From: an uncultured bacterium
GTDB taxonomy: Bacteria > Hinthialibacterota > Hinthialibacteria > Hinthialibacterales > JAKPRU01
Assembly: GCA_964612675.1 (NCBI GenBank)
Contig: CAZTDD010000002.1
Location: 138,461-202,460, forward strand
Length of the DNA stretch: 64,000 nucleotides
Direction: 5' to 3'
Shown here: piece after piece, positions 9,439 to 59,998 of the stretch
Numbering within the stretch: the stretch's first letter is position 1
How the letters are laid out: each line of letters begins with the position of its first letter
Made by a program: the position numbers and the translations under genes
The notes under the pieces: generated by a model
Database searches by the model: none
What the model was told of the DNA's origin: nothing
Seen by the model: only the letters and a program-made list of their open reading frames with translations

Positions 9439-9780
9439 TCATTCAAAGGAAGACACGGCTTCATCCACGCTCGGATACCATTTGAATACCGTGTCCAACT
9501 TCGTCAATCGCAGAACATCCTCTACAGGAATCGATACATTGGCGAATCTCAAATCTCCGCTGTTTTTCGCCGCCCTCTGATAGTAACTTACCAGAATCGC
9601 GATCACAGTACTATTGAGAAACTGCAGGTGCTCGCAATCCAGGACCACCTTGTAGCGTTCTTCCTCAAGCAAGGCGCTGCAGTTCTGGTCCAGTGCGTCG
9701 CTGAGCAGAGTGTCCAGCCTCTCCGGCACGGACAAAACAGTAACCTCTCCACGGTCGTCTCGACGGATGTCGTCTTTCAT
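9439..9780 (-). CDS. STAS-domain anti-sigma-factor antagonist
   Basis: SpoIIAA-like length and fold signature (LDCEHLQFLNSTVIAILV...LRFANVS). Confidence 0.55.
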   Translation of the reverse strand: MKDDIRRDDRGEVTVLSVPERLDTLLSDALDQNCSALLEEERYKVVLDCEHLQFLNSTVIAILVSYYQRAAKNSGDLRFANVSIPVEDVLRLTKLDTVFKWYPSVDEAVSSFE

Positions 9781-9923
9781 GTTTTCGCCCCGTTCGTTAC
9801 TCTATGATTCTGTTCGCCCCTAAGGTACTGATATCCACGGGTGGACACAAGAGCGAGAATTCTACTCGTCGTTCAAAGCCGCTGCAGGAGCTTTCCACTC
9901 GCACGGCTTCACGAGGATCCTCG

Positions 9924-10271
9924 ATGAAAATAGCAAAAGTTGTCGGTAGTGCGGTATCCACCATTAAGCACGAGTCCTATCTCGGAAAGAAACTATTGAT
10001 CGTTCAGCCTTTGGATCTGAACGGTAACCCCCTGGGAAACTCTACCATCGCCGTTGATTATTCCGGCGCCGGAGAAGGCGACTACGTTCTTGTCGGTTCC
10101 GCTCCGGGAGTCGCCCAGCAGGTCTTCGACATCGAAATCGCACCGATTCGCGAACTGATTATGGGGATCATCGATTATGTCGAGGTAGATGGACGCATCG
10201 TCATAAGTGCTGAACCCGGCCACCTGACCGAGACGTCAGGGCGGACACTTGCCGCAAGTGGAGCGGAATAG
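9924..10271 (+). CDS. EutN/CcmL-family bacterial microcompartment vertex (BMC-P) protein
   Basis: MKIAKVVGSAVSTIKHESYLGKKLLIVQP...AVDYSGAGEGDYVLVGSAPGVAQ matches the EutN/CcmL/PduN pentamer fold signature; upstream in-frame extension to 9804 is probably not translated. Confidence 0.6.
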   Translation: MKIAKVVGSAVSTIKHESYLGKKLLIVQPLDLNGNPLGNSTIAVDYSGAGEGDYVLVGSAPGVAQQVFDIEIAPIRELIMGIIDYVEVDGRIVISAEPGHLTETSGRTLAASGAE

Positions 10272-26487: not shown

Positions 26488-28170
26488 CTACTTTATATAT
26501 CCCAAATCGCGCAGATTCTGCAGTTGATCGGGTGTCAAAGTGACCGGTTCCATTTCCAGTGCTTCCGCCCGCCCCAGCTGCTCCGCGATCGCGTCCGACG
26601 ATTGTGTGAAACGATCCAATTCGGTCAATAAATCTTCGACAACCTCGGGATGAGACGGGGCCAGGTTTATCGATTCGGCCGGATCCTTTGCGAGATCGTA
26701 GAGTTCCATCCCCTTTCGCCACGACGGTGCGATCAACTTCCACCGGCCCTGAACCGCTGCCTCTTTTATTGGCACAAGCGGATCCGATTTTGCTCCTCCA
26801 TAGGTTTGTGCGAATACCGTGCGCTGAATCTCCTGATCTTCCGTTTCCGCCAAATCTTCAAAAAGATACCGGCCCTGGACCGGTGATTGGACCTCAAACT
26901 CAAACAGTTGTGTTAGCGTCGGAAAGACGTCAACGTGGCTTGTGAGATCCGTTGCCGCCTTGCCTGATTCCACCAAAGGCGGATACGCGAGAATCGACAT
27001 GGTTCTCACGCTCTCGTCGTACAGAGTCTCCCCGTGATACCTCACACCGTGTTCGAGAAACTCTTCACCATGATCGGACAGAAACCAAAGCAGGGTTGAA
27101 CCAAGCAAATCTCGTTCAGCCAACCCGAGAAGAAACTGTCCAACTCGTTGGTCGACAAGCGTAATCTCCGCACAATAGCGGTCATGTTCCTCGTCGCCGG
27201 TTTTGCCTATATAGAAGTCATCGAAGTGTTCGGTTGTTTGGTACGGTGCGTGCAAACAGATGAAATGCACATAGAGGAAAAAAGGCGGCGGCGTTCTCGA
27301 AAGCCAGCGGAGCGATTCGCGAATCACGTCCGGGTCCCAGATCGGTCCTTCGTATTTTTCAAAACCCCGGCTGAATCCGAACGGGGAGACAATTTGAGCA
27401 TTCGAGTGAAACGCGCCGGTTCTGTAACCCTGTTCTTGATAAAGTTCCGCGATTGTCTTCGCTTTCGGAAACAGGCTGGCGGCCTCGGTTGTATGGCGGA
27501 TCGCGCCGTGAGCCCGTGGATAAAGGCCGGTGAATATCGAACCAATGGACGGACGCGATGAGGAGGAGGTGCCGTACCACCGCGTGAATTCCGTTCCCAA
27601 CCCACGCATATTTTCCAGATGAGGCGCGACAATGAACGGATATTTTCTCCCGGGAAAGTGATCCGGGCGCATCGCATCCACAAGGACAATTACCGCATTC
27701 AAAGGCCCCGATGAGGCTCCGTAACTCTGGACCTCAACCGACAGGAGTCTGGGGCGGCAGGAATCCAGCGCCTCAATCGATAAATTCAAAGACCCTGTGT
27801 ACTTTAGTCTCGCGTCGATTCGAAATGGTCTCTTCGATTGGAGCGGCTTCGCAGCGGGAGTCGTGGACGAGACGGTTTTCACCGAACCGTCCGAAGTCGC
27901 TATCCACTCACATTCCCAGTTGTCGAAATAGATCTTGTTCGTGTAAATGGATGCAGGTTGGTCTTCGGCCGCCTCAATTGTGTGCGAGCGGTACCTGAAC
28001 TTTCCGTCTTCTTCACCCCGGAAAAACAGCGGCACGATCTGTTTCACGGGCTCGACCGGACTCGAACATCCTATCGCCGAAACAAGTACAACTGTGGCGA
28101 GTAGTATTCTTGGAGTCGAGGAACCCGAAAAACGCGTGAGGATTATGAGGTTCTTTCTTAGCGAAAGCAC
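26488..28170 (-). CDS. Sulfatase-family (alkaline phosphatase superfamily) lipoprotein
   Basis: Lipobox AIGC; VDAMRPDH metal-binding start and sulfatase-domain layout, but no canonical C/S-x-P-x-R FGly motif. Confidence 0.55.
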   Translation of the reverse strand: MLSLRKNLIILTRFSGSSTPRILLATVVLVSAIGCSSPVEPVKQIVPLFFRGEEDGKFRYRSHTIEAAEDQPASIYTNKIYFDNWECEWIATSDGSVKTVSSTTPAAKPLQSKRPFRIDARLKYTGSLNLSIEALDSCRPRLLSVEVQSYGASSGPLNAVIVLVDAMRPDHFPGRKYPFIVAPHLENMRGLGTEFTRWYGTSSSSRPSIGSIFTGLYPRAHGAIRHTTEAASLFPKAKTIAELYQEQGYRTGAFHSNAQIVSPFGFSRGFEKYEGPIWDPDVIRESLRWLSRTPPPFFLYVHFICLHAPYQTTEHFDDFYIGKTGDEEHDRYCAEITLVDQRVGQFLLGLAERDLLGSTLLWFLSDHGEEFLEHGVRYHGETLYDESVRTMSILAYPPLVESGKAATDLTSHVDVFPTLTQLFEFEVQSPVQGRYLFEDLAETEDQEIQRTVFAQTYGGAKSDPLVPIKEAAVQGRWKLIAPSWRKGMELYDLAKDPAESINLAPSHPEVVEDLLTELDRFTQSSDAIAEQLGRAEALEMEPVTLTPDQLQNLRDLGYIK

Positions 28171-31720: not shown

Positions 31721-31800
31721 CACGGATAGCCAGTGTATTCTCAACTTGACGACATTCGATGAGCCTCCCGGCGAGCCGAGAACGACTGTCGAATCTTCTT

Positions 31801-34800
31801 ATGGAACCCATTTTCTATCGGATACATAAACATTGTGTGGTTCGGCGTTTTGGCCTACTTCTTCTGCTGTTCTTCTTCGGCGCGTGCAGTTTCGCAGAAG
31901 CCGCGGACTCCTTCGTGAGCCGGAGTTTCTCCGTGGAAGAGGAATCGCGTAACGGAGCGGTCCTCTCATGGTCCTTTCCCCGGGAGGATATTGATTCGCC
32001 TCAACGCATCCTTCTTTCAATCCCTCATGGGGTTCTCGAAGACCCGCAGTTGCTCGATTACGGTACCGAACCGGTTATTGTGAACTCGCCAACGCCCGAG
32101 ATCATATTCCGCGAACTCGGAGTGATGCGTTCGTGTCGTGTCGGTATGGTAAGCGTTCCATCGGTGACTTACGTGGGCGGGGTCACCGCAAGAATCCGCT
32201 ATGTGACGGGACGCATTCGAATCCCGTGGAACGATAAACCTCGTCGGGTCTCTGCGCCCGACCATCCGGTTGAACGGATTTTGGATGCTTACCTGTTGAA
32301 CGAGGGAACCCGTTTTGACCTGCAATCGGATCCTCCGAACGATCTGCCGATACCCGCCTATCGTCGGGGACCCTCGGTACGTTTATTGGCTAAAGGCGAG
32401 CGGGCCGTCGCTGTGGGATCGTTCGCGTGGTCGAAAGTCGCTGGTGAGAATCCGAGCATCGATCAGGTCGCTGTGATCGGGCCGAAAGGACCGGTTCCAT
32501 TCATTGTTTGGACCGCAGACCGGAGCGTACGCACCGAGGGAGAACTGCAACAGGAAGACAGGATTCTCTTTTGGACCGACGAGTCGGATTCGCCCTATTC
32601 CCCCTTTTCCTCCTATTGGCTCTGTGAAGACCCGAAGAGTTCCCGGCTCGCAGCGCCTCCGTCCAGGGAAGAGGATTCCTCAGCTGAGACTTCTGCTCGT
32701 TGTGTTGTCTCACTGGAACAGGACCGCGTTTTCTTCCCGGAAGGACACCGAGATCGGCGACAGCACGCGTACTGGGGCTGGGACGAGATTACGTCCGAAA
32801 CGCCGGTCGCTCTACCCATTCCGGTACTGCCATACCCGGCCGCGGCTACCTTCAGTCTCGAAATCGGGTTGCTCTCGAAGGACGGGTTGCTTTCATCCGA
32901 CATGTTGAGCTTCTCTCTGAACCAAACGCCCATCGAAATGGAAGTGGAGAATCTACCCACCCGTCAATTCGCCACGGCGAAAGCCATTGTATCCACCGAA
33001 ACGTTGCGAGGCACCACCTCCACTCTGCGTATCGCGGCGGCAAACGATATCGGCTCGCCCGTCTACCTCGATACAGTGCGTTTGGACTACCGACGGCAGA
33101 CTGAGTATTCCGGAGGGATGCTCCGGTTCTCACCCGCTCCGGGGTCCTATCGCCTCCATTCGTCTTACTCCTCAAATGCGCTTATCTGGCTTATCGAGCC
33201 GGAGGGCGGAGTTGTTTCTTCGCAGGTCCTTAAGCCTGGAGAAAACCTCTCGCTCGAGGTCCCCGATGACCACAGGATCGTTGTCCTCGATCCCAGCGAT
33301 GTCGGTTATGCCGACCTGCTTTCCCATATGCCGCCGGTCTCGGCAACGGACCCATCATTGGTCCCCCCGGATCAAACCGACATCATCATTGTCGCACCGG
33401 AAGTTTTTCATTCGACGCTCCAGAAACTCATCCGGCATTACCGTTCACGCGGGATGCGATCCCACGTGGTCAGCGTGAAGGATATCTATTCGGTTTTTGG
33501 TGACGGGCGTCTCTCTCCGGAACCTATCAAGGATTACCTTCGATGGCTTTACGAACGGAATCCCGTGCGATGCCCAGCCTATGTTCTCCTTGTGGGCGAC
33601 GCGACATGGGATTATTGGGGGAAATTCCGTAACGGGATCGTCAATCTGGTTCCCGCTTACCGTGGTACGGCGGACTATCCCGACGAAAACTGGTTCGTTT
33701 CCCTCACGCGAAGCGATTCGCTCCCCGAAATGTTGATCGGTCGATTTGCAGTTCGGACGCCGAAAGAACTGGAGGTCATGATTCAGAAGCTGATTGCCTA
33801 CAACGCTGAGAAGCCCGCAGCGTGGATGAACCGCGTCCTTCTGGTAACCGACAACGACTTTGAAAACGAGGTGAATGAGCTCTATACCGAATGGCTGCCG
33901 CCCGGTTACGAAACCAGCGAGGTCCGGTTGGCGGACTATCCTTTCAGAGACAACTACTACCTCCCCGAAGACGCCCGCCGTGCATTGAAGGCTAAGACCA
34001 GTCCACAAGCGACCGATGCCGTGATCGAGCGGCTTAACGAGGGCGTCGTTCTCTGGGAATACTTCGGCCACGGTGCGCCGAACGTTATGGGGCACGAGCG
34101 AATTTTCTTTGCGGGCGGATCGAAGTTCAGCGATGCGAAGCGGTTGTCCAATAAGGACGAATTACCATTGCTTTGGGCATTTACATGCCAAACCGGCAAT
34201 TTTGACTACGCTGAGGAGAAATGGAACATCTCGATCGCCGAAGATCTGCTTACGCGGCCTGAGGGCGGTGTCATTGCCGCGTTGGTTGCCACGGGACGGG
34301 GTTTTCCGCGCGATCATCTTGTTCTCGCTCGCGGTCTGCACGACGCGGTGTTCCGTCGGGGCCTTCGTGGAACAGCGCAGTCTTTCGCAGCTTCGTGTCT
34401 CCTGGCATTGATTGATAACCGGCACTTTGAGCCGCAGGAGCAGTTCTGCATTCTGGGAGACCCGACCTTTGAGCTGCCTGTTCCTAAAGCATGGCCCGAA
34501 ACCGCCGAATCGAAGATCGTCTTCGACTCGGTCGGGACTCTCCAATACAGTTTTGCTTCACCAGGGGAAGACGCCGGAGGCCGAGTGTGGTTACGTGATG
34601 GGAACCACGAGACTCGATGGGAGGATCCCCTGGAGCCGGCTGACTGGCCCACGGAAGGGAATCTTGAATTTTCTGAACTGCTCGGTGCGGATTGGCGTCG
34701 TGAAGAGACCGCTTCATTCGGTCTCGCTGCCCTCCTTCCCTCTGGACTGGTTCATGGCGGAACAGTCATCGTTCTCCCCCCGCCGGCCGCCCCGGAAACG

Positions 34801-35514
34801 ATCGGCTCAGGTTCTCCCAACCTCACCATCCTCGAAAAAGATATTCGTCTCCGTCCCCCATACCCCGAGAACGGAATGACGATCTTCTTCGATGTTCCCG
34901 TTGCGAATACAGGCAGCGAGGTTTCGTCTCGTTCAATCCTTCGCGGCGTCCTCTTCGAGCCTGGTGAGAAAGAACGGGTCTTAGAGAACTTTGTCGGGCG
35001 AAACGAGCCCTTCATTCCAGCTCTCGTCCCTGGAGCCACCCGCGTTATCACGGCCCGTTGGGATCCGATTGAGAACTCCGGCGAGCACACAATTCGGTTT
35101 GAGTGCGATCCTTGGAATCGCATCGACGAACCTGATGAAGCGGACAATGTAGCCGAGATAACCGTCGACGTTCGCAAAAAGGCGGATCTGCTCGTTGAAC
35201 CGTCGGATATTGAATACCGTCACGATTCGGACGAGGATCAGTTTGTCATCGATTTCACCGTCCATAACGTCGGCGAAACCGACGCCCGGCAGGTGCTCAT
35301 TCAAGTTGCGGTTGGCTTTGAGGGACCCACTCCGGAGCAATCGGGTGTTCTCGATGTTTGGGAAGTGCAGGCGGGCAAACTGCGAAAAGGATACAATCTC
35401 CGTGTTACCGACCGGGCTGCGTGGTTCCGTGTGACTGCCGATCCGGATGAAATGATTGATGAAGAAACTCACAAGAACAACAGCGCAAAGGTAGATCTCG
35501 AAATTCCCCAATGA
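31801..35514 (+). CDS. Secreted peptidase C25 (gingipain-like) family protein with C-terminal CARDB-like domains
   Basis: Signal peptide; YVLLVGD...WEYFGHGAP...WAFTCQTGNFD block (C25 His/Cys dyad context); C-terminal beta-rich CARDB-like repeats. Confidence 0.55.
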   Translation: MEPIFYRIHKHCVVRRFGLLLLLFFFGACSFAEAADSFVSRSFSVEEESRNGAVLSWSFPREDIDSPQRILLSIPHGVLEDPQLLDYGTEPVIVNSPTPEIIFRELGVMRSCRVGMVSVPSVTYVGGVTARIRYVTGRIRIPWNDKPRRVSAPDHPVERILDAYLLNEGTRFDLQSDPPNDLPIPAYRRGPSVRLLAKGERAVAVGSFAWSKVAGENPSIDQVAVIGPKGPVPFIVWTADRSVRTEGELQQEDRILFWTDESDSPYSPFSSYWLCEDPKSSRLAAPPSREEDSSAETSARCVVSLEQDRVFFPEGHRDRRQHAYWGWDEITSETPVALPIPVLPYPAAATFSLEIGLLSKDGLLSSDMLSFSLNQTPIEMEVENLPTRQFATAKAIVSTETLRGTTSTLRIAAANDIGSPVYLDTVRLDYRRQTEYSGGMLRFSPAPGSYRLHSSYSSNALIWLIEPEGGVVSSQVLKPGENLSLEVPDDHRIVVLDPSDVGYADLLSHMPPVSATDPSLVPPDQTDIIIVAPEVFHSTLQKLIRHYRSRGMRSHVVSVKDIYSVFGDGRLSPEPIKDYLRWLYERNPVRCPAYVLLVGDATWDYWGKFRNGIVNLVPAYRGTADYPDENWFVSLTRSDSLPEMLIGRFAVRTPKELEVMIQKLIAYNAEKPAAWMNRVLLVTDNDFENEVNELYTEWLPPGYETSEVRLADYPFRDNYYLPEDARRALKAKTSPQATDAVIERLNEGVVLWEYFGHGAPNVMGHERIFFAGGSKFSDAKRLSNKDELPLLWAFTCQTGNFDYAEEKWNISIAEDLLTRPEGGVIAALVATGRGFPRDHLVLARGLHDAVFRRGLRGTAQSFAASCLLALIDNRHFEPQEQFCILGDPTFELPVPKAWPETAESKIVFDSVGTLQYSFASPGEDAGGRVWLRDGNHETRWEDPLEPADWPTEGNLEFSELLGADWRREETASFGLAALLPSGLVHGGTVIVLPPPAAPETIGSGSPNLTILEKDIRLRPPYPENGMTIFFDVPVANTGSEVSSRSILRGVLFEPGEKERVLENFVGRNEPFIPALVPGATRVITARWDPIENSGEHTIRFECDPWNRIDEPDEADNVAEITVDVRKKADLLVEPSDIEYRHDSDEDQFVIDFTVHNVGETDARQVLIQVAVGFEGPTPEQSGVLDVWEVQAGKLRKGYNLRVTDRAAWFRVTADPDEMIDEETHKNNSAKVDLEIPQ

Positions 35515-41020: not shown

Positions 41021-41449
41021 TCATGTCGCGCTAGCCATTTTCTCTTTCGTCGGCAATAGCCGAGTAAGAGCCTCCGGATCTTGGAGATCTTCAAACTTTA
41101 CTACTTGTAGATCTTTGACTTCCACGGGCATGTTGAGAGGCAACGTATCCTCAGTAACAACAGCAATCATCTCTTTGTCCATCGCCCACGCGGCTCCGAG
41201 CTCGTGGAGCACCCATTTTGAGTCAAATGAATCCTCTGACACCAGAAGGATAAAAGTGTCGCAGTTTGAAATCTCTTCTTTGAGTCTTGTTTGCCAGTCC
41301 TCTCCCGCACTAAGCATATTTGTTGTGAAGACAGACGTGTTACGGCGGCGTGACAACAGATGGCGCAATAAGTTTGCACGTTTCGAGTCTGTGTAGGCGT
41401 AACTGAGAAAGACTCGATGCGTTGCTTCTGACTTCTTTGTTCCCGTCAT
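41021..41449 (-). CDS. TIR-domain-only protein (142 aa)
   Basis: VFLSYAYTDS...FILLVSEDSFDSKWVLHELGAAW matches the bacterial TIR_2 signature, including the conserved Glu; GC about 47% versus about 57% genome. Confidence 0.65.
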   Translation of the reverse strand: MTGTKKSEATHRVFLSYAYTDSKRANLLRHLLSRRRNTSVFTTNMLSAGEDWQTRLKEEISNCDTFILLVSEDSFDSKWVLHELGAAWAMDKEMIAVVTEDTLPLNMPVEVKDLQVVKFEDLQDPEALTRLLPTKEKMASAT

Positions 41450-41883
41450 TTTCCACCTTTTGCCTTCTTCGCCCTGGCAGTGAGTTGTTTCATATATTCG
41501 TCAAACTCGTTAAGGTCGATTGCCTTATAAGGAATTATAACATCCGGCATCTCGTCGGGCGAAATCTTGTCAATGATTGCTGTGATTCGTTTGCCGAGTA
41601 TCCAGGCTGCCCCGATTTCCGTCAAAACCCAAGGTCGCTGGATGGAGCAAGGGGTCAATAATACAAGAAACTCATCGCAGCCGCGGATACTTTTCCGTAT
41701 CGATTCTGGTATCGAGTCTCCTCCTTCTATGTCTTTCTCATCGAGGAAAGTCTTCGCCCCGTATCTTCGGATTTTTCTTTCTATCTCACCGGCAATTTGT
41801 TTAGCGATCCAGCGGTCGGCTGTGGAGTGGCTGATGAAAACCGTGTATCTGCGTGCGGTTGCTTTATTGGTAGTCCTTGCCAT
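41446..41883 (-). CDS. TIR-domain-only protein (145 aa)
   Basis: VFISHSTADRWIAKQI...FLVLLTPCSIQRPWVLTEIGAAW TIR_2 signature; ATGA overlap with the downstream TIR gene; low GC. Confidence 0.7.
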   Translation of the reverse strand: MARTTNKATARRYTVFISHSTADRWIAKQIAGEIERKIRRYGAKTFLDEKDIEGGDSIPESIRKSIRGCDEFLVLLTPCSIQRPWVLTEIGAAWILGKRITAIIDKISPDEMPDVIIPYKAIDLNEFDEYMKQLTARAKKAKGGK

Positions 41884-42100
41884 CGCTGTCAGATCTCCGA
41901 GGATCTACTGTGCAAACGACTAGTATTTCATTTTAGAACAGATCACAAGGTCGTCAAGTTGAAGGACTATTTCAGAGAGGCAATTCCACCCACTCGTCAT
42001 CGCAACAGGTCTCGACTGGTTGACATGCCTTCTCCAGCGCATGCAGATCTCCTATCCTCTTTTCATCGTGTAAAATAGTCGGACATAAGGGAGTTTTTCC

Positions 42101-43105
42101 ATGATTGAGACATATGCATACGCTCGCGCAGGCCTTATCGGGAATCCATCGGACGGTTACTACGGAAAGACGATCTCCATTATCGTTGGCAATTTTCGGG
42201 CACGTGTGTTGTGCTATCCGTCCGCAAACCTCGAAATCAAGCCCAGTGCGATTGATATCCCCGTATTTCGTTCGTTGGATTCGCTGCGTAGACGTGTGAC
42301 TCAATACGGCTATTACGGCGGTGTCCGTTTGTTAATGGCCACGATCAAGAAATTCACGGATTACTGCGAAAACGAAGGCATCGAACTGCCGAATCGGAAC
42401 TTCACTCTGGAGTATGAATCGAACATCCCAGCCCGGGTCGGCCTCGCCGGTTCCAGTGCGATTATCACCGCGACCATGCGTGCCCTGCGTGCCTTCTACA
42501 ACGTCGATATCCCGAAACATATCCAACCGAACTATGTGCTGAGTGCTGAAATCGATGAATTGGGGATTGCGGCGGGGTTGCAAGACCGCGTCATCCAGAC
42601 CTACGAAGGCATGGTCTTCATGAATTTCGCGCGAGAGATCATGGAAAAGCAGGGCCACGGCGACTACGAGGAGCTGGATCCGACAAATCTTCCGCCGTTG
42701 TTTGTAGCCTATCAAGCCGATTTATCAGAAGGATCCGAGATAGTCCACAGCAACCTGCGTGAGCGATTCCAGCGCGGCGACAAGGATGTCGTGGACGCGA
42801 TGAAACGGTTTGGTGAGATCACCGAAGAAGCGAAAATCGCGATCACGGAGGCCGATCACAAACGTCTCAGTGGGTTGATCAACGAGAACTTCGATCTACG
42901 TGCGTCGATTGTCAAATTGAAGCAAGAGGACAAAGAACTCGTGGAGCGGGCTCGGCGAATCGGCGCCAGCTCGAAATTCGCCGGTTCCGGCGGAGCGGTG
43001 ATCGGGACCTTCGATGGAACCGATGAGATGCTGCAGAAACTTGTCGACACGTACAAGGAAATCGGCGCCGAGGTGGTTGTCCCAAAAGTACTGAAGACAA
43101 ATTGA
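42101..43105 (+). CDS. GHMP-family sugar kinase (glucuronokinase-like)
   Basis: N-terminal AYARAGLIGNPSDGYYGKTIS and GHMP motif PARVGLAGSSAIITA. Confidence 0.6.
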   Translation: MIETYAYARAGLIGNPSDGYYGKTISIIVGNFRARVLCYPSANLEIKPSAIDIPVFRSLDSLRRRVTQYGYYGGVRLLMATIKKFTDYCENEGIELPNRNFTLEYESNIPARVGLAGSSAIITATMRALRAFYNVDIPKHIQPNYVLSAEIDELGIAAGLQDRVIQTYEGMVFMNFAREIMEKQGHGDYEELDPTNLPPLFVAYQADLSEGSEIVHSNLRERFQRGDKDVVDAMKRFGEITEEAKIAITEADHKRLSGLINENFDLRASIVKLKQEDKELVERARRIGASSKFAGSGGAVIGTFDGTDEMLQKLVDTYKEIGAEVVVPKVLKTN

Positions 43106-43210
43106 AAAGGACTGAAGACAAATTAGAAGGTTCTGAAGACGAACTGCAAAGTGCTGAAGATGAACTGAGAGGTTCTGAAGACGAACTGAAAAGTGCTGAA
43201 GACAAACTGA
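43085..43210. repeat. Six tandem 21-bp units (ARGTNCTGAAGACRAANTGNA) starting in the last codons of the GHMP kinase gene
   Basis: Direct reading; units 2-6 lie beyond the stop and four carry an in-frame TGA/TAG. Confidence 0.7.
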
Positions 43211-49997: not shown

Positions 49998-50190
49998 GGG
50001 TTCCTCCTGTACGGTACCGGTTCCGGGTCACCCACCAACTCTACGACATTCGGATGCGTGGCATCAAGAACAAGCTGCCCTTTTCGGTGTTTTTTTCGCC
50101 TGATTCGTCGAGTTTCCAGACATTGGGCCGATAGATGCTGCGCCCAGCCTTGAATAAGGGGGGTAAGCCGCGCTATTCTTTAAGTTTGTC

Positions 50191-50278
50191 GCCGTCATCG
50201 CGAGCGAATCCTGGCGATCTCTTTTGGTGCTCTTCGCCCCTGAGATTCCCACGTCGCTTCGTTCCTCGGAATGACGGG
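50191..50278. repeat. About 88-bp structured repeat (CCGTCATCGCGAGCGAA...GAGATTCCCACGTCGCT...CCTCGGAATGACGG), copy 1
   Basis: Near-identical copy at 59912-59998; internal and terminal inverted complementarity. Confidence 0.55.
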
Positions 50279-50416
50279 GATAGTGTGGTTGCCAAGTAGA
50301 GTGTAGGGTGGGTTAGCGGAGCATAGTAGACAAAACAGTCTCAGCAGCACTGCCTCCGCCGGCGACACGTAACCCACCAACCCGGCTGAACCGTATCTTG
50401 AAAGTGTGGAAGTATT

Positions 50417-50863
50417 ATGAAGCAGAAGACGTTTGTACCCAAAGAGCAGGATATACGACAACCCCGCGATTGGCACCTTGTCGACGCAGACGGTGAGGTT
50501 CTCGGTCGGCTGGCGAGTCAGGTCGCCACCCTTTTGCGGGGCAAGCATAAACCGACGTTCTGTCCGTTCCTGGACTGTGGCGATCAGGTTGTTGTCGTGA
50601 ATGCCGAGAAGATCGTTCTCTCAGGTCGAAAACCCGACCAAAAAGTCTATTATCGCCACAGCGGTTATCCCGGTGGATTGAAACAGATTACTTTTCGTCA
50701 GCTCATGGAAAAGCATCCGGAACGTGCGGTTATGCACGCGGTACAGGGGATGCTTCCCAGAAATCGCCTGGGCCGGAAAATGTTGAAGAAACTGCGGGTT
50801 TACGCAGGGGCCGATCACCCGCACACCGCCCAGAGCCCCAAACCATTCAAATTGTCCCGTTAG
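50417..50863 (+). CDS. rplM: 50S ribosomal protein L13
   Basis: Canonical L13 sequence. Confidence 0.9.
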
Positions 50864-50881
50864 TAGGAGGAGAATCCGGTC

Positions 50882-51283
50882 ATGGAATTGCTTGGACCAT
50901 ATGTTGCACAGGGAATAGGACGTCGCAAGACCTCGATTGCCAGGGTGTATTTGAAGCCTGGAACCGGCGAAGTTACATGCAATGGGCGATCGGTCGCAGA
51001 TTACTTCAGTCGACCGATACTCGAGGAAGTGGCTGTACAAGCGCTGGATCTAGTTCAGCTCAAAGGGAAATATGACGTTGTTGCGCGCCTCTCCGGTGGA
51101 GGACTCACCGGCCAGGCGGGCGCACTGCGTCTGGGGCTCGCACGAGCCCTCATCGAGGTCGATCCCAAATTGAGACGTCCCCTCAAAAAAGCCGGATATC
51201 TCACCCGCGATCCACGCATGGTCGAGCGAAAGAAATACGGTCGTCCCGGTGCTCGCAAACGTTTCCAGTTCTCCAAACGTTGA
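50882..51283 (+). CDS. rpsI: 30S ribosomal protein S9
   Basis: Canonical S9 including C-terminal [11 protein letters not shown]. Confidence 0.9.
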
Positions 51284-51451
51284 CGGTATTTTCTCCAACA
51301 AGACTACTTTATCCAGGCCGGCTCCACGCCGGCCTGTTTTGTTTAATCTCTTCATTGTCCTTTCGAGCCTGCCTTCTCATGGTTTAGAATCCTTGTAGAG
51401 ATAATGGTTTGAATAGACCCGCCATTCATGTGGCATATCCGGAGGTGTTCC

Positions 51452-55674: not shown

Positions 55675-55718
55675 TTGGGAATCTCTCGATGATGGGGTTT
55701 CGGGGAGAAGCAAGGCTA

Positions 55719-55765
55719 CTGAATCACGAAAACACGAAGGAGCACGAAGGCACGAAAAAGAAAAC
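55719..55765. repeat. 47-bp direct repeat rich in CACGAA (copy 1; copy 2 at 59035-59081, 44/47 identical)
   Basis: CTGAATCACGAAAACACGAAGGAGCACGAAGGCACGAAAAAGAAAAC; the two copies flank the FGE-domain gene. Confidence 0.6.
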
Positions 55766-55946
55766 AAAACCGGGAAAAGAACCAATATACAACAGAGACG
55801 TATGTTTTTTTGTGCTTTTTCAGTTCTTCCGGCTTGTTTCCCCCACCATGACTCGGCTAGACACCCTTAAGCTTCTGCACGATGATTTCCGATTAGTCAT
55901 CGTGCGGTCTTAGCTCCGCCCATCCACCATGAGAAAGTGAGACATC

Positions 55947-58900
55947 GTGAAGCACACCATTCCGTTTGCATTTCTTTTTCTTCTTGCGCTGCCATCCTCA
56001 AGTCAAAACACCGGAATCCTCTTGACTCCCGAACGTGTATTCACCTTCGACTCTGCGAACGAATTCACCGAGTATCCCGGCGGATTCGACGGGGCGGAAG
56101 CCGGGTCTGTAGAGGTAGGCGAGATTCCGGCAGATCCGAATGCTCTGAGTGACGGGCAGGGAGCCACGATCACTGTTGCCCCAGGCCAAGTTGAGCTGTT
56201 GATGTTTCCGTCGCTGGAGGTCAGAGACCATGTGGCGCTTTTCCGCGTGTCCGTTCAATCAAACGGGCCGGGAGCGGCGGTGGCGTTGGCGGCGTTGGAT
56301 GGGTCAATGGACGGCTCCATTGGCACAAATATCCCTGCCAACAGCAGCATCTTCCAAGGCAATTACCAGCGCTTGGTTCTCCTGTATGAGCCACCGGGCA
56401 CAAACATCATTCCGGTGATTCAAGTCGCGAACATGGCCGGTGAGCAGCCGGTTTCCATTTATGTCGACAATCTGGAGGTTCTGTTGATCCCCAGAGGTGA
56501 GACTATCCCAACGGACCTATTGTACGGGAGCAGAGCCGAGGAACCGATACCCGGCGAAACCATCACCATCCCCCTCGATCTCCCTGAAGATGCGAAACCG
56601 CTGGAAATGGTCTTGATCCCGGCGGGGACGTTCACCATGGGCTCGCCGGAGGATGAGCAGGGTCGCTTTGACGAGACACAGCATGAGGTGACGATCAGCC
56701 GGGATTTCTATATCGGGAAGTATGAGGTGACGAACGCGCAGTTCCGCGCTTTCCGGCCGGACCATGACAGCATGGATTACGATGGCCTTAGCCTCAATGG
56801 AAACGATCAACCGGTTGTGTACGTGAGTTGGCATGATGCGGTAGCGTTCTGTGAATGGCTGTCGGCGGAAACGGGGACTGAATTTCGGTTGCCTACCGAA
56901 TCGGAATGGGAATATGCATGCCGTGCAGGGACGACAACGCGGCGGTACTGGGGCGATGACCTCAATGAAGACCAGGCGTGCGGGTATGCGAATGTGGCTG
57001 ACCAGACGGCCAAGAGCAGATGGTCGAATGGGACGGTGTTTAATTGTGATGATGGTCATCCCGTCACGGCTCCGGTTGGCCGGTTCCGACCGAATGATTT
57101 CGGTCTGTACGATATGCTCGGTAACGTTGGGGAATGGTGTCAGGACTGGAACGGCACTTATCCATCAGGTCCAATAGTTGATCCAGTTGGTCAACCAAGT
57201 GGCTTTCACCGCGTCCTCCGCGGGGGGAGTTGGCTCAGCCCGGGGGGCGTACGATCGGCGAACCGGGCCGGCGCGTTGCCTGGCGCCAAGGACGCCATCC
57301 TCGGGTTTCGGTTAGTGTTAGTTTCTTCTCAGACTCCGTCTTCCAAGCCGACGCCGACAGCGACCCCGACCAACACGCCGACCCCCACGGCAACCCCACT
57401 ACCCGATGATTCGAGTAGGGAGTCGATAACGATTCCCCTCGATATCCCTGAAGATGCGAAGCCGCTGGAAATGGTCTTGATCCCGGCGGGGACATTCATG
57501 ATGGGATCACCTGAGGATGAGAGGGGAAGGTATGACGTTTATGACTGGCCGCCGCATAAAGTGACCATTAGCCAGGATTTCTATATAGGCAAATATGAGG
57601 TGACGCAGGCCCAATGGGAAGCACTGATGAGCGACAATCCAGCTACCGGCATGAGCGACAATCCGGCTACCGGCAGGGGGGAAGGAGATGATTATCCCGT
57701 TTATAAGGTGAGCTGGATTGATTGCCAGACGTTTATTGAGGAGTTGAATGAACTAGGCCACGGAACATTTCGTTTGCCGACGGAAGCAGAATGGGAGTAC
57801 GCATGCCGCGCGGGAACAACCACGAGATTTTCGTTTGGGGATGCACTGGAGTGCCCCGACTACACAACTTCCTACGATCCGCCGACTCCGTTGTACTGCG
57901 AGTTGGCCGACCAGTACATGTGGTGGAGTGGCAATAATAGTCCGTACGGGGCAAACGTGGTCGGGCTCAAGTCACCGAATCCCTGGGGACTCTATGACAT
58001 GCACGGCAATATCAGCGAGTGGTGTTCGGACTGGTGGGAGGAATCGTACAGCAAAGCGGACCAAGTCGACCCGGCCGGTCCGGAGTCGGGCTCGTACCGC
58101 GTAATTCGCAGTGGTTCCTGGCTCGGTGATGCCGGGGGGTGTCGATCCGCGAGCCGCAACTACGCGTGGCCTGATCGGGGAGCGGGGGTATCAACATCGG
58201 TTTGCGTGTTATCCTTTCCCGGGCTCCTTCGTCGGCTCCGAACCCGACACCAACCCTTACGCCCACTCCCGGCGACTTCACAGGCGAAACCGTCACCGTC
58301 CCCCTCGATCTTCCCGAAGACGTCAAGCCGCTGGAGATGGTTTTAATCTCGGCTGGGACATTCATGATGGGCTCGCCGGAGGATGAGCACGGTCGACATG
58401 ATGATGAAATCCGGCATGAGGTGACAATCAGCCGAGATTTCTATATGGGCAAGTACGAGGTGACACAAGCGCAATGGGAAGTGGTCATGTGGAACAATCC
58501 CTCTGATTACCAGGATATGCCGAACCACCCCGTGGAGCCACTCTCATGGCATGATTGCCGGGACTTTATCGAGAAATTGAACGAAATGAGTTTGGTGTCT
58601 GGGGAATTCCGGTTGCCGACGGAGGCGGAGTGGGAGTACGCATGCCGCGCAGGAACGACGACACGATACTACTGGGGCGACGATCCGGAATACACAGAGG
58701 CTGAGGGGTATGCGTCGTATCTTCCAGATGACAGCGGCCAGCGTACAAAGGAAGTCGGTCAGAAACTGCCGAACGCGTGGGGCCTATACGACATGAGCGG
58801 GAATGTGTGGGAGTGGTGCCAAGATTGGCGCGGAGAATATCCAACCGGTCCTGTAGTCGATCCGATCGGTCCACAAAGCGGCACGCACCGCATCATGCGC

Positions 58901-59017
58901 GGCGGCTCTCCGACGTTTCACCCGTGGCCGATTCGCTCGGCGAACCGGGTTGGGGGCGGACCCAATAACGCATACGAGCGCACCGGATTGCGATTGGTGC
59001 TTTCCCGGGTTCCATGA
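55947..59017 (+). pseudogene. Secreted protein with three tandem FGE-sulfatase (SUMF1-like) domains joined by Pro/Thr-rich linkers; frame broken by a -1 shift at a GGGG run (58177-58180)
   Basis: ORFs 55947..58346 and 58202..59017 encode domains 1-2 and domain 3; adding one G to the run gives ...WPDRGSGGINIGLRVILSRAPSS, matching the linkers after domains 1 and 3; each domain has RLPTEAEWEYACRAGTTTR. Confidence 0.6.
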
Positions 59018-59111
59018 TGCACCGTTGAATCACGAAAACACGAAGAAGCACGAAGGCACGAAGAAGAAAACGCCACCTTTTGGAGTGCGGTGGCTCCGAC
59101 ACCGCTTTGTC

Positions 59112-59810: not shown

Positions 59811-59911
59811 CGTTCTCTACAACAGAGTCCATTTTCGTTATGGCGAGCCTCGAACCGGCGGTACCAGAGATTTGAGAAAGAAAATCCGACTGTTCACAGC
59901 TCGTTAGTTCA

Positions 59912-59998
59912 CCGTCATCGCGAGCGAAGCGTGGCGATCTCTTCGTTGCGTGCCCCAACGGCGAGATTCCCACGTCGCTCCGCTCCTCGGAATGACGG
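59912..59998. repeat. About 88-bp structured repeat, copy 2
   Basis: Aligns to 50191-50278. Confidence 0.55.

Follow-up and report, generated by a model that had tools for sequence, protein, structure and literature searches.

The two open reading frames between positions 55947 and 59017 of the 64-kb window (the whole stretch of DNA analysed here) are a single frameshifted gene. ORF1 (55947-58346, + strand, GTG start codon) encodes 799 aa, and the -1 frame is open from 58175, just after a TGA at 58172-58174, to a stop at 59015-59017. The two parts are assigned to one gene because a second Pro/Thr-rich linker and a full-length third domain directly continue in the -1 frame and because a single added G completes domain 2; the repaired protein is 1023 aa long. 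Until very recently, this would have been an intact accessory gene for a secreted, modular, and probably non-catalytic binding protein in which a Sec-type signal peptide and a CBM-like beta-sandwich domain precede three FGE-fold domains on Pro/Thr linkers. Our preferred but tentative reading, to which we assign a probability of approximately 0.45, is that the loss of one G was a genuine, recent, and ordinary slippage mutation and that the gene is now a young pseudogene or a truncated allele.

ORF1 comprises the signal peptide, the N-domain, FGE-fold domain 1, a linker, and domain 2 minus its last ~15 profile positions, and it ends in an out-of-frame tail of 56 codons. The signal-peptide-like N-terminus (MKHTIPFAFLFLLALPSSSQ; 55947-56006) was judged by inspection, and equivalent hydrophobic N-termini are found in three homologues (P0091, P0123, and P0130). 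It is followed by the N-domain (56016-56546), which belongs to an unnamed family with a predicted CBM-like beta-sandwich fold, and then by domain 1 (56604-57317; 194.4 bits, profile 4-254 of 255), Pro/Thr-rich linker 1 (57324-57419), and domain 2 (57468-58213), which is complete only with the repaired frame. The -1 frame contributes Pro/Thr-rich linker 2 (58217-58285) and an intact domain 3 (58334-58999; 163.2 bits, profile 4-254 of 255); all of these features lie on the + strand. In searches with Pfam PF03781 (gathering score, 23.3 bits), ORF1 matched in two stretches (341.7 bits), and the downstream frame matched in one full-length stretch (162 bits, profile 4-254 of 255). As encoded, domain 2 scores 160.1 bits and covers profile positions 4-239 of 255, and with one G added, it scores 168.0 bits and extends to position 254. 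All three domains are thus members of PF03781 (160-194 bits, over most of the profile), and the HMM annotation suggested in an earlier note on this DNA bears out its description of a split triple-domain gene with Pro/Thr-rich linkers. Domain 1, in which that note had read a motif containing TEAEW, actually reads RLPTESEWEYACRAGTTTR. Pairwise identity among the three domains is 54-61% (65-78% in places at the nucleotide level), and a PLEMVLI motif with a conserved Met is common to all of them. Domain 2 also holds an in-frame tandem duplication of 24 nt (57627-57674, + strand; MSDNPATG twice, 2.0 copies, 96% match).

The frame shift can be bounded to 58175-58192 (+ strand; sequence TCGGGGAGCGGGGGT). 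The left bound is set by the TGA at 58172-58174 in the -1 frame, and the right bound is set by the homologous INIGLRV/NIGLRV motif, which is read in the -1 frame from 58193. It had been proposed that the break lies at the GGGG run at 58177-58180; a single added G there does restore the frame, but the interval also contains a G5 run (58184-58188), and one more G in either run has the same effect. The break sits in the last loop of domain 2, ~73% into the gene. A hidden, compensated frameshift was also considered at the odd GGSPTFHPWP loop of domain 3 and was rejected, as inspection of the alternative frames gave no GGSW-like sequence. In other proteins, the inter-domain junctions are encoded in a single frame (P0008, P0010, and ~114 multi-domain homologues, with no true orthologue among them). 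Neither the protein search nor the GTDB genome scan yielded a homologue of more than ~60% identity spanning the junction, and the best match to a junction-proximal 82-aa query among 1.84 billion representatives was 61% identical. The junction DNA pattern had no matches in JGI metagenomes when variant lengths (G3-5/G4-6) were allowed; as not a single copy was found, this result says nothing about length variants.

Two conserved, convergent genes flank the gene, which synteny identifies as an accessory insertion. In three relatives (L086, L087, and L088), the ArsP and Fer4 genes lie tail to tail, 6 nt apart, and the FGE-like gene is absent, whereas it is present in a closer relative (L085, a contig from Logan sample SRR28370465 that includes the 5' end of the gene); DNA identity of the neighbouring genes is ~70% in the relatives without the FGE-like gene and 89% in the relative with it. 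Named relatives of the neighbouring genes share at most ~46% identity (Calditrichales, Omnitrophota, and Latescibacterota). The gene is also fast evolving, as dN/dS over its first 66 codons is 0.30 compared with 0.023 for the adjacent permease, and its module number varies as well. It is flanked by two direct copies of a CACGAA-rich 46-nt repeat, one upstream (55720-55765) and one 8 nt past the stop (59026-59071). These are the only copies in the window; they are 96% identical, with none expected by chance. The repeat is missing from the equivalent junction in L085, and no copy was found in any retrieved locus. Beyond the second copy lies a 32-nt segment (59078-59109, + strand) with a terminator-like hairpin (59087-59105, followed by TTTG); in L085, the same segment separates the permease gene from the FGE-like gene. 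The insert exhibits no compositional anomaly, and no Rfam RNA family was found in the window.

Within this context, we infer that the frame break is present in the cell and not only in the consensus sequence. A dispensable, fast-evolving gene would have lost one base by slippage in a short G run (G4 or G5) within the last loop of domain 2, so that linker 2 and domain 3 would now fall in the -1 frame. The loss appears recent because domain 3 is still an open frame of 281 codons with a PF03781 score on par with that of domain 2. However, it is also quite possible, at somewhat less than even odds, that the break is a sequencing or assembly consensus error and that the true genome carries one more G (G5 or G6) and an intact 1023-aa ORF. 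The break lies in a homopolymer pair, linker 2 and domain 3 are perfectly preserved, and the many G runs and internal repeats of the gene complicate polishing. A residual sequencing error would also take exactly this form of a single, undecayed homopolymer lesion, which counts against a real deletion. Such artefacts do occur in the sequence context of this family: in the long-read-style contigs L082 and L090, the homologous genes show many frame changes. These broken homologues were rejected as cases of recurrent pseudogenisation because neighbouring genes are split there too (e.g., ADH_N and ADH_zinc_N). Against a consensus error, no second split gene was found among the ~60 ORFs of the window, 50 of which were run against Pfam or NCBIfam; a systematically indel-prone assembly was rejected on the same ground. 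Moreover, the four longer G6 runs of the same gene are all in frame. The gene holds four of the 11 runs of at least 6 nt in the window, compared with 0.53 expected, and this enrichment in G runs raises the chance of both mutation and sequencing error. An assembly error or a genuine pseudogene, as the earlier note put it, is therefore still the right pair of alternatives.

The break is unlikely to be a regulatory device. Exported proteins that face the surface or a ligand are a class that is often phase variable, and known contingency loci have tracts of roughly at least 7 G/C. The product encoded here is predicted to be exported and surface- or ligand-facing, the break falls in a G run, and the frame beyond it is undamaged, all of which would fit slipped-strand phase variation in which changes in tract length turn the third domain on or off. 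The suggestion of such a switch nonetheless fares poorly, and we regard it as very unlikely. The tracts comprise only 4-5 nt, well below the length of known contingency loci, in a window with 374 G/C runs of at least 4 nt and 84 of at least 5 nt; the longer G6 runs of the gene stay in frame; the break, at 73% of the gene length, is far from the 5' end; and the OFF state would also remove the last strand of domain 2. Still harder to credit is a wider proposal in which a real, reversible break, caused by slippage in the G4/G5 pair or by ribosomal slippage at a low level on G GGG G, toggles a secreted lectin-like protein between two and three domains and in which the gene, with the 46-nt CACGAA-rich repeats on either side, could be a mobile cassette at a hot spot of insertion between convergent genes. 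If such toggling were true, it would tune binding valency rather than turn the whole gene on or off.

Three further explanations appear extremely improbable. In the first, two- and three-domain products both arise, through programmed -1 ribosomal frameshifting or through transcriptional slippage. It is conceivable that a P-site tRNA-Gly re-pairs on G GGG G (58184-58188), and the product would be that of +1 G repair variant B, but the site has no X XXY YYZ heptamer (the 0-frame codons are CGG GGA GCG GGG GTA), the predicted folding of the 102 nt downstream is no more stable than that of shuffled sequence (MFE -21.4 vs. -22.0 kcal/mol on average for the shuffles, z = +0.22), and homologues encode the junction in one frame. 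It is equally hard to accept that there are two genes by design, with ORF2 translated alone from TTG 58202 or ATG 58337. The latter codon lies 5 nt before the ORF1 stop (ATGGTTTTAA), a geometry that fits termination-reinitiation; however, ORF2 would then start in the inter-domain linker or in the first strand of domain 3 and would have no signal peptide, and ATG 58337 is the conserved Met of the PLEMVLI motif found in all three domains.

The third of these explanations holds that the domains are targets of a diversity-generating retroelement (DGR) and that mutagenic retrohoming into the C-terminal loop of domain 2 caused the frameshift as a side effect. [quoted passage not shown] Nonetheless, no template-repeat copy of the C-terminus of any of the domains was found in the window, and no reverse transcriptase was detected in Pfam and NCBIfam runs on 50 of its larger ORFs.

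The least probable of all the alternatives is a true formylglycine-generating enzyme that matures sulfatases: in the PDB, the protein matches human and bacterial FGEs best by sequence (E = 1e-32 to 1e-25), but the catalytic Cys pair is missing from the three domains, the protein is predicted to be exported, and the sole sulfatase-superfamily ORF of the window (26488-28170) has no C/S-x-P-x-R motif. In the alignment to human FGE, all three domains carry Ser or Gly at Cys336 and a 4-residue deletion over Cys341, and the single Cys of domain 2 is located elsewhere than at the catalytic positions. Both cysteines, which bind Cu(I) (human Cys336 and Cys341), are required for FGE activity (bioRxiv 10.1101/2021.05.21.445229). 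Of the 335 homologue domains in which a GGSW motif can be recognised, only one has a Cx4C arrangement at this site. Thus, FGE/SUMF1, which the earlier note took as the function, describes the fold only. No named FGE-fold equivalog was recovered at its curated NCBIfam cut-off (score/cut-off: PvdO, 226/500; GldK/PorK, 197/350; EgtB, 103/360; SenA, 95/420; GldJ, 82/458; and OvoA, 58/400).

The loss of the catalytic Cys pair of true FGEs from all three domains suggests that these are probably non-catalytic, C-type-lectin-like binding modules, and, judging from the fold and from relatives, the protein may bind an extracellular ligand such as a glycan. Human and bacterial FGEs (SUMF1; PDB 1y1e, 2q17, and 6s07) have the same fold and include the best PDB sequence match (E = 1e-32), but they possess the two Cu-binding catalytic cysteines that are missing here and a loop that is 4 residues longer. 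TvpA from Treponema denticola (PDB 2y3c) is a surface protein with the FGE/C-type-lectin fold that shows no FGE activity and is regarded as a binding module (PMC5758913). TvpA consists of one domain and is diversified by a DGR, unlike the three-domain protein described here, for which the search of the window revealed neither RT nor TR. PorK/GldK and GldJ, lipoproteins of T9SS and gliding (PDB 9mzu, 9ots, and 9p6h), are also non-catalytic FGE-fold proteins of the cell envelope; however, the present protein has no lipobox Cys and no adjoining ring-complex partners, and it scores below the GldK and GldJ model cut-offs.

Three tandem FGE-like domains had been considered unusual, yet a tandem FGE-fold layout is common. 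Among the 120 best homologues, PF03781 occurs three times in 36, four times in 67, five times in 7, and six times in 4 (i.e., three to six domains in 114), and a published DGR target carries three tandem FGE-sulfatase domains (PMC5758913). The multi-domain proteins, named 'formylglycine-generating enzyme family' or 'SUMF1/EgtB/PvdO family' (e.g., P0004, P0010, P0019, and P0055), come from MAGs of Planctomycetota, Verrucomicrobiota, Hydrogenedentota, and Omnitrophota. Like the present protein, they have 3-6 tandem PF03781 domains with Pro/Thr linkers and no catalytic Cys pair, and they are often exported via the N-terminus or attached to Ser/Thr kinases on their extracytoplasmic side. They differ in that they are only 35-52% identical and that the N-domain is absent from those inspected; moreover, the copy described here is frameshifted. 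The closest homologue found, P0091 (591 aa; NCBI, uncultured bacterium), has the same type of signal peptide, an N-domain that is ~78% identical, and an FGE-fold domain that is 64% identical to domain 2, but it ends with an authentic stop after this one FGE-fold domain. Module number is thus plastic in this subfamily.

The N-domain (~180 aa) has no match in Pfam or NCBIfam, and its family comprises a few dozen members at most (47-81% identity). The best metagenome locus in a scan with an N-domain profile (L091, 1.4 kb long) is 81% identical in its best segment and 75% identical over residues 1-199. An AF2 model of the domain (pLDDT 84, pTM 0.82) gave CBM4/61/22/16/11 and MAM domains as its best Foldseek matches (E ~1e-7, TM 0.55-0.65). 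The modelled beta-sandwich jelly-roll fold is that of CBM4, CBM22, and CBM61, whereas sequence identity to them is only 13-16% and sequence membership of a described CBM family is not supported. According to this model, the N-domain is an undescribed CBM-like beta-sandwich family, which would support an extracellular binding role for the protein.

The main value of these findings lies in annotation: the two ORFs should be called one frameshifted gene, and, given that it lacks the catalytic cysteines, the name 'formylglycine-generating enzyme' is unsuitable for it. Only if reads revealed heterogeneity in tract length would the frameshift itself take on any special significance. Planctomycetota, Verrucomicrobiota, and allied uncultured phyla contain very many tandem FGE-fold proteins without the cysteines, and each one that is well described adds a little to the knowledge of this group.

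The gene at 55947-59017 on the forward strand is divided between two reading frames. ORF1, which begins with a GTG and spans 55947-58346 (799 aa), encodes the N-domain, the first FGE-fold domain (D1) and most of the second (D2), while a second open frame on the same strand, -1 relative to ORF1 (ORF2), opens at 58175, directly behind the TGA of 58172-74, and extends to a stop at 59015-17, encoding the second linker and D3. Pfam PF03781 (FGE-sulfatase) has two matches in ORF1 and one full-profile match in the downstream frame. Scored singly, D1 reaches 194.4 bits (profile positions 4-254 of 255), D2 as encoded 160.1 bits (4-239 of 255) and D3 163.2 bits (4-254 of 255), and with one G added D2 rises to 168.0 bits (4-254 of 255). 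The annotation with PF03781 suggested in the earlier note thus recovers three domains at 160.1-194.4 bits and, together with the frame analysis, confirms a single frameshifted gene whose continuity is restored by one G; the note's domain description is also accurate, except that the motif in D1 is TESEWEY rather than TEAEWEY. The break is confined to 58175-58192 (TCGGGGAGCGGGGGT...), limited on the left by the TGA and on the right by the motif NIGLRV, the counterpart of Y-I-G-[VF]-R in homologues, which needs the -1 frame from 58193. The GGGG run at 58177-80, where the break had been placed, lies inside this interval; however, so does a G5 run at 58184-88 that is equally able to restore the frame. 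One G added to either yields a continuous 1023-aa protein (junction ...WPDRG(S/A)GGINIGLRVILSRAPSS...), in which the last loop of D2 has 14 residues vs. the usual 12 in paralogous and homologous domains. The base may have gone from either run, and a more complex indel is also possible.

Pairwise identity among the three domains is 54-61%. In the alignment with human FGE, Cys336 is substituted and the position of Cys341 is gone by a 4-residue deletion (GGSWLSPGG----VRSANR vs. GGSYM-C-HRSY-C-YRYRC), and the sole nearby cysteine of D2 occupies a different position from the catalytic ones. FGE copper binding and catalysis need both cysteines (bioRxiv 10.1101/2021.05.21.445229). None of the NCBIfam equivalogs PvdO, GldK, GldJ, EgtB, SenA and OvoA is matched at its cut-off, and the only sulfatase-superfamily ORF in the window (26488-28170), 28 kb away, is without the C/S-x-P-x-R motif. 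Judged by sequence, D1-D3 have the FGE fold but are predicted not to be formylglycine-generating enzymes. Non-catalytic FGE-fold proteins (PorK/GldK, TvpA and PvdO) are among their PDB relatives, and Cys-less FGE-fold (C-type-lectin-like) domains are regarded as binding modules (PMC5758913; PMC7159879). A 1251-aa protein at 31759-35514 partially matches the T9SS sortase PorU (218 bits vs. a cut-off of 420); no link between it and the FGE-like gene was found, though the T9SS protein PorK/GldK is itself FGE-fold. D2 contains a near-perfect, in-frame 24-nt tandem duplication (57627-57674, forward strand; MSDNPATG twice), which arose recently by slippage or duplication. Elsewhere, at 43085-43210, a 21-nt unit (AAAGTACTGAAGACAAATTGA-like) is repeated in tandem about six times at the 3' end of a GHMP-kinase ORF and just beyond.

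The earlier note regarded three such domains in one polypeptide as unusual, but at least 114 distinct clusters of homologues have three or more. A protein search gave 7550 matches at E<=1e-20, and in the best 120 of these, a ranking biased toward multi-domain proteins, an HMM built from D1-D3 counted one domain in 1 protein, two in 5, three in 36, four in 67, five in 7 and six in 4. Among the domains of these best 120, 335 have a recognisable GGSW motif, and Cx4C follows it in only 1 of them. Many homologues are fusions with Ser/Thr kinases, as would suit a part in sensing or binding. The closest homologue found (P0091, 591 aa, NCBI, uncultured bacterium) shares this N-domain (~78% identity) but carries a single FGE-fold domain followed by a stop, whereas the window gene has three; module number is therefore plastic in this subfamily. 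Coverage by the word-indexed protein search is incomplete: with the N-domain as query, it missed P0091. The N-domain itself (residues ~24-200) has no match in Pfam or NCBIfam and belongs to a small family, confined to uncultured bacteria, whose members stand by themselves, form tandem arrays or are joined to FGE-fold domains. Its AlphaFold model is a beta-sandwich (pLDDT 84, pTM 0.82) whose best structural matches are CBM4, CBM61, CBM22, CBM16 and CBM11 modules and MAM domains, suggesting a previously undescribed CBM-like domain. Because the N-terminus is signal-peptide-like (judged by inspection), the linkers are Pro/Thr-rich, the FGE-fold domains lack the cysteines and the N-domain is probably CBM-like, the most economical reading would be a secreted, multivalent ligand-binding protein, possibly one that binds glycans.

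The gene lies among unrelated housekeeping-type genes: a GFO/IDH/MocA oxidoreductase, endonuclease V, BrkB/YihY and an ArsP-type permease upstream, and, further along and read in the opposite direction, two Fer4 proteins and one DUF362 protein downstream. In three more distant relatives (L086, L087 and L088), ArsP and Fer4 stand tail to tail with no FGE-like gene (in L086 and L087 they are 6 nt apart), and the permease is 75% identical to that of the window in protein and about 68-73% in DNA. The closest relative, L085, has the 5' end of the FGE-like gene and a permease 98% identical in protein and 88.6% in DNA. It follows that the gene is an accessory one, inserted between two conserved genes that converge. 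It is exactly flanked by two copies (55720-55765 and 59026-59071, 96% identical) of a 46-nt CACGAA-rich direct repeat (TGAATCACGAAAACACGAAGRAGCACGAAGGCACGAARAAGAAAAC), with no further copy in the window and none among 99 fetched loci; this could be a REP-/MITE-like element or the recombination footprint of the insertion. A 32-nt terminator-like segment lies between permease and FGE-like gene in L085 (junction region 1211-1263) and downstream of the gene in the window (59078-59109), where the upstream junction (55675-55823) holds a degenerate remnant of it and an extra ~126 nt with the first repeat copy; the insertion junctions thus differ between the window and L085. Between the window and L085, dN/dS is 0.30 over the gene's first 66 codons, compared with 0.13 over the BrkB C-terminus and 0.023 over the permease: the gene is less constrained, yet its evolution was non-neutral through most of this divergence. 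For the same 66 codons (window 55947-56144, L085 1389-1586), a small sample, dS is 0.16 vs. 0.57 for the permease and 0.47 for BrkB, which hints at a more recent cassette exchange.

A second interspersed repeat (~90 nt, 91-94% identical; 50189-50277 and 59909-59998) contains a widespread 'CGTCATTCCGAGGA...' REP-like motif; just downstream of the locus, one of its copies sits between the Fer4 and Fer4_5 genes. The other falls in ~1.4 kb (50027-51413) of short ORFs without a Pfam match, which may be degraded or non-coding. The window also includes two adjoining reverse-strand ORFs (41021-41904), each with a complete TIR domain (PF13676; weaker ThsB_TIR matches), which may be defence-related, and a EutN/CcmL-family ORF (9744-10271; bacterial-microcompartment vertex protein).

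As to the nature of the break, the earlier note's "assembly error or genuine pseudogene" holds up, as two ordinary readings are left. The first, a real recent one-base deletion (probability roughly 0.45), is favoured by the finding of no other split gene among about 60 ORFs of the window, by the longer G6 runs of the gene being correct and in frame, and by the gene being accessory and fast-evolving. The second, a consensus error over an intact gene, is also quite credible: the lesion is a lone one in a homopolymer, the gene is internally repetitive and rich in G runs, and D3 is without decay. Both predict an identical sequence. Of the 11 G/C runs in the window that reach 6 or more, 4 fall in this intrinsically indel-prone gene (0.53 expected); they are G6 runs on the coding strand at 57222-57227, 57242-57247, 57676-57681 and 58134-58139, and three of them encode Gly-Gly. 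No orthologue spanning the junction was found in the protein collections, GTDB genomes and JGI metagenomes searched. In two long-read-style contigs (L082 6400-10700 and L090 4600-8250), homologues with the N-domain and FGE-fold domains switch frame several times; they are uninformative because neighbouring genes on the same contigs are also split, a sign of assembly errors in the two records.

All readings other than deletion or consensus error are, even jointly, improbable. The phase-variable switch of the third domain raised in the earlier note, whose interpretation is thus supported only in part, fares badly: the tract is only 4-5 nt in a window where G/C runs of at least 4 number 374 and those of at least 5 number 84, the gene's four G6 runs are in frame, and the break lies 73% into the gene. 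Programmed -1 frameshifting was rejected, as the site lacks a heptamer of the X XXY YYZ type, the 102 nt that follow are no more stably folded than their shuffled versions (z = +0.22) and the junction is in a single frame in homologues. Independent translation of ORF2 would start in a linker or beta-strand without a signal peptide. As for a DGR, the window showed no template repeat, and Pfam/NCBIfam runs on 50 of its larger ORFs gave no reverse transcriptase. Reversible G-tract control of domain number, very improbable in itself, would if true be the only reading to raise the interest of the gene; the frameshift is otherwise ordinary, and the gene adds one more to the secreted tandem Cys-less FGE-fold proteins, a class that is very common and uncharacterised.
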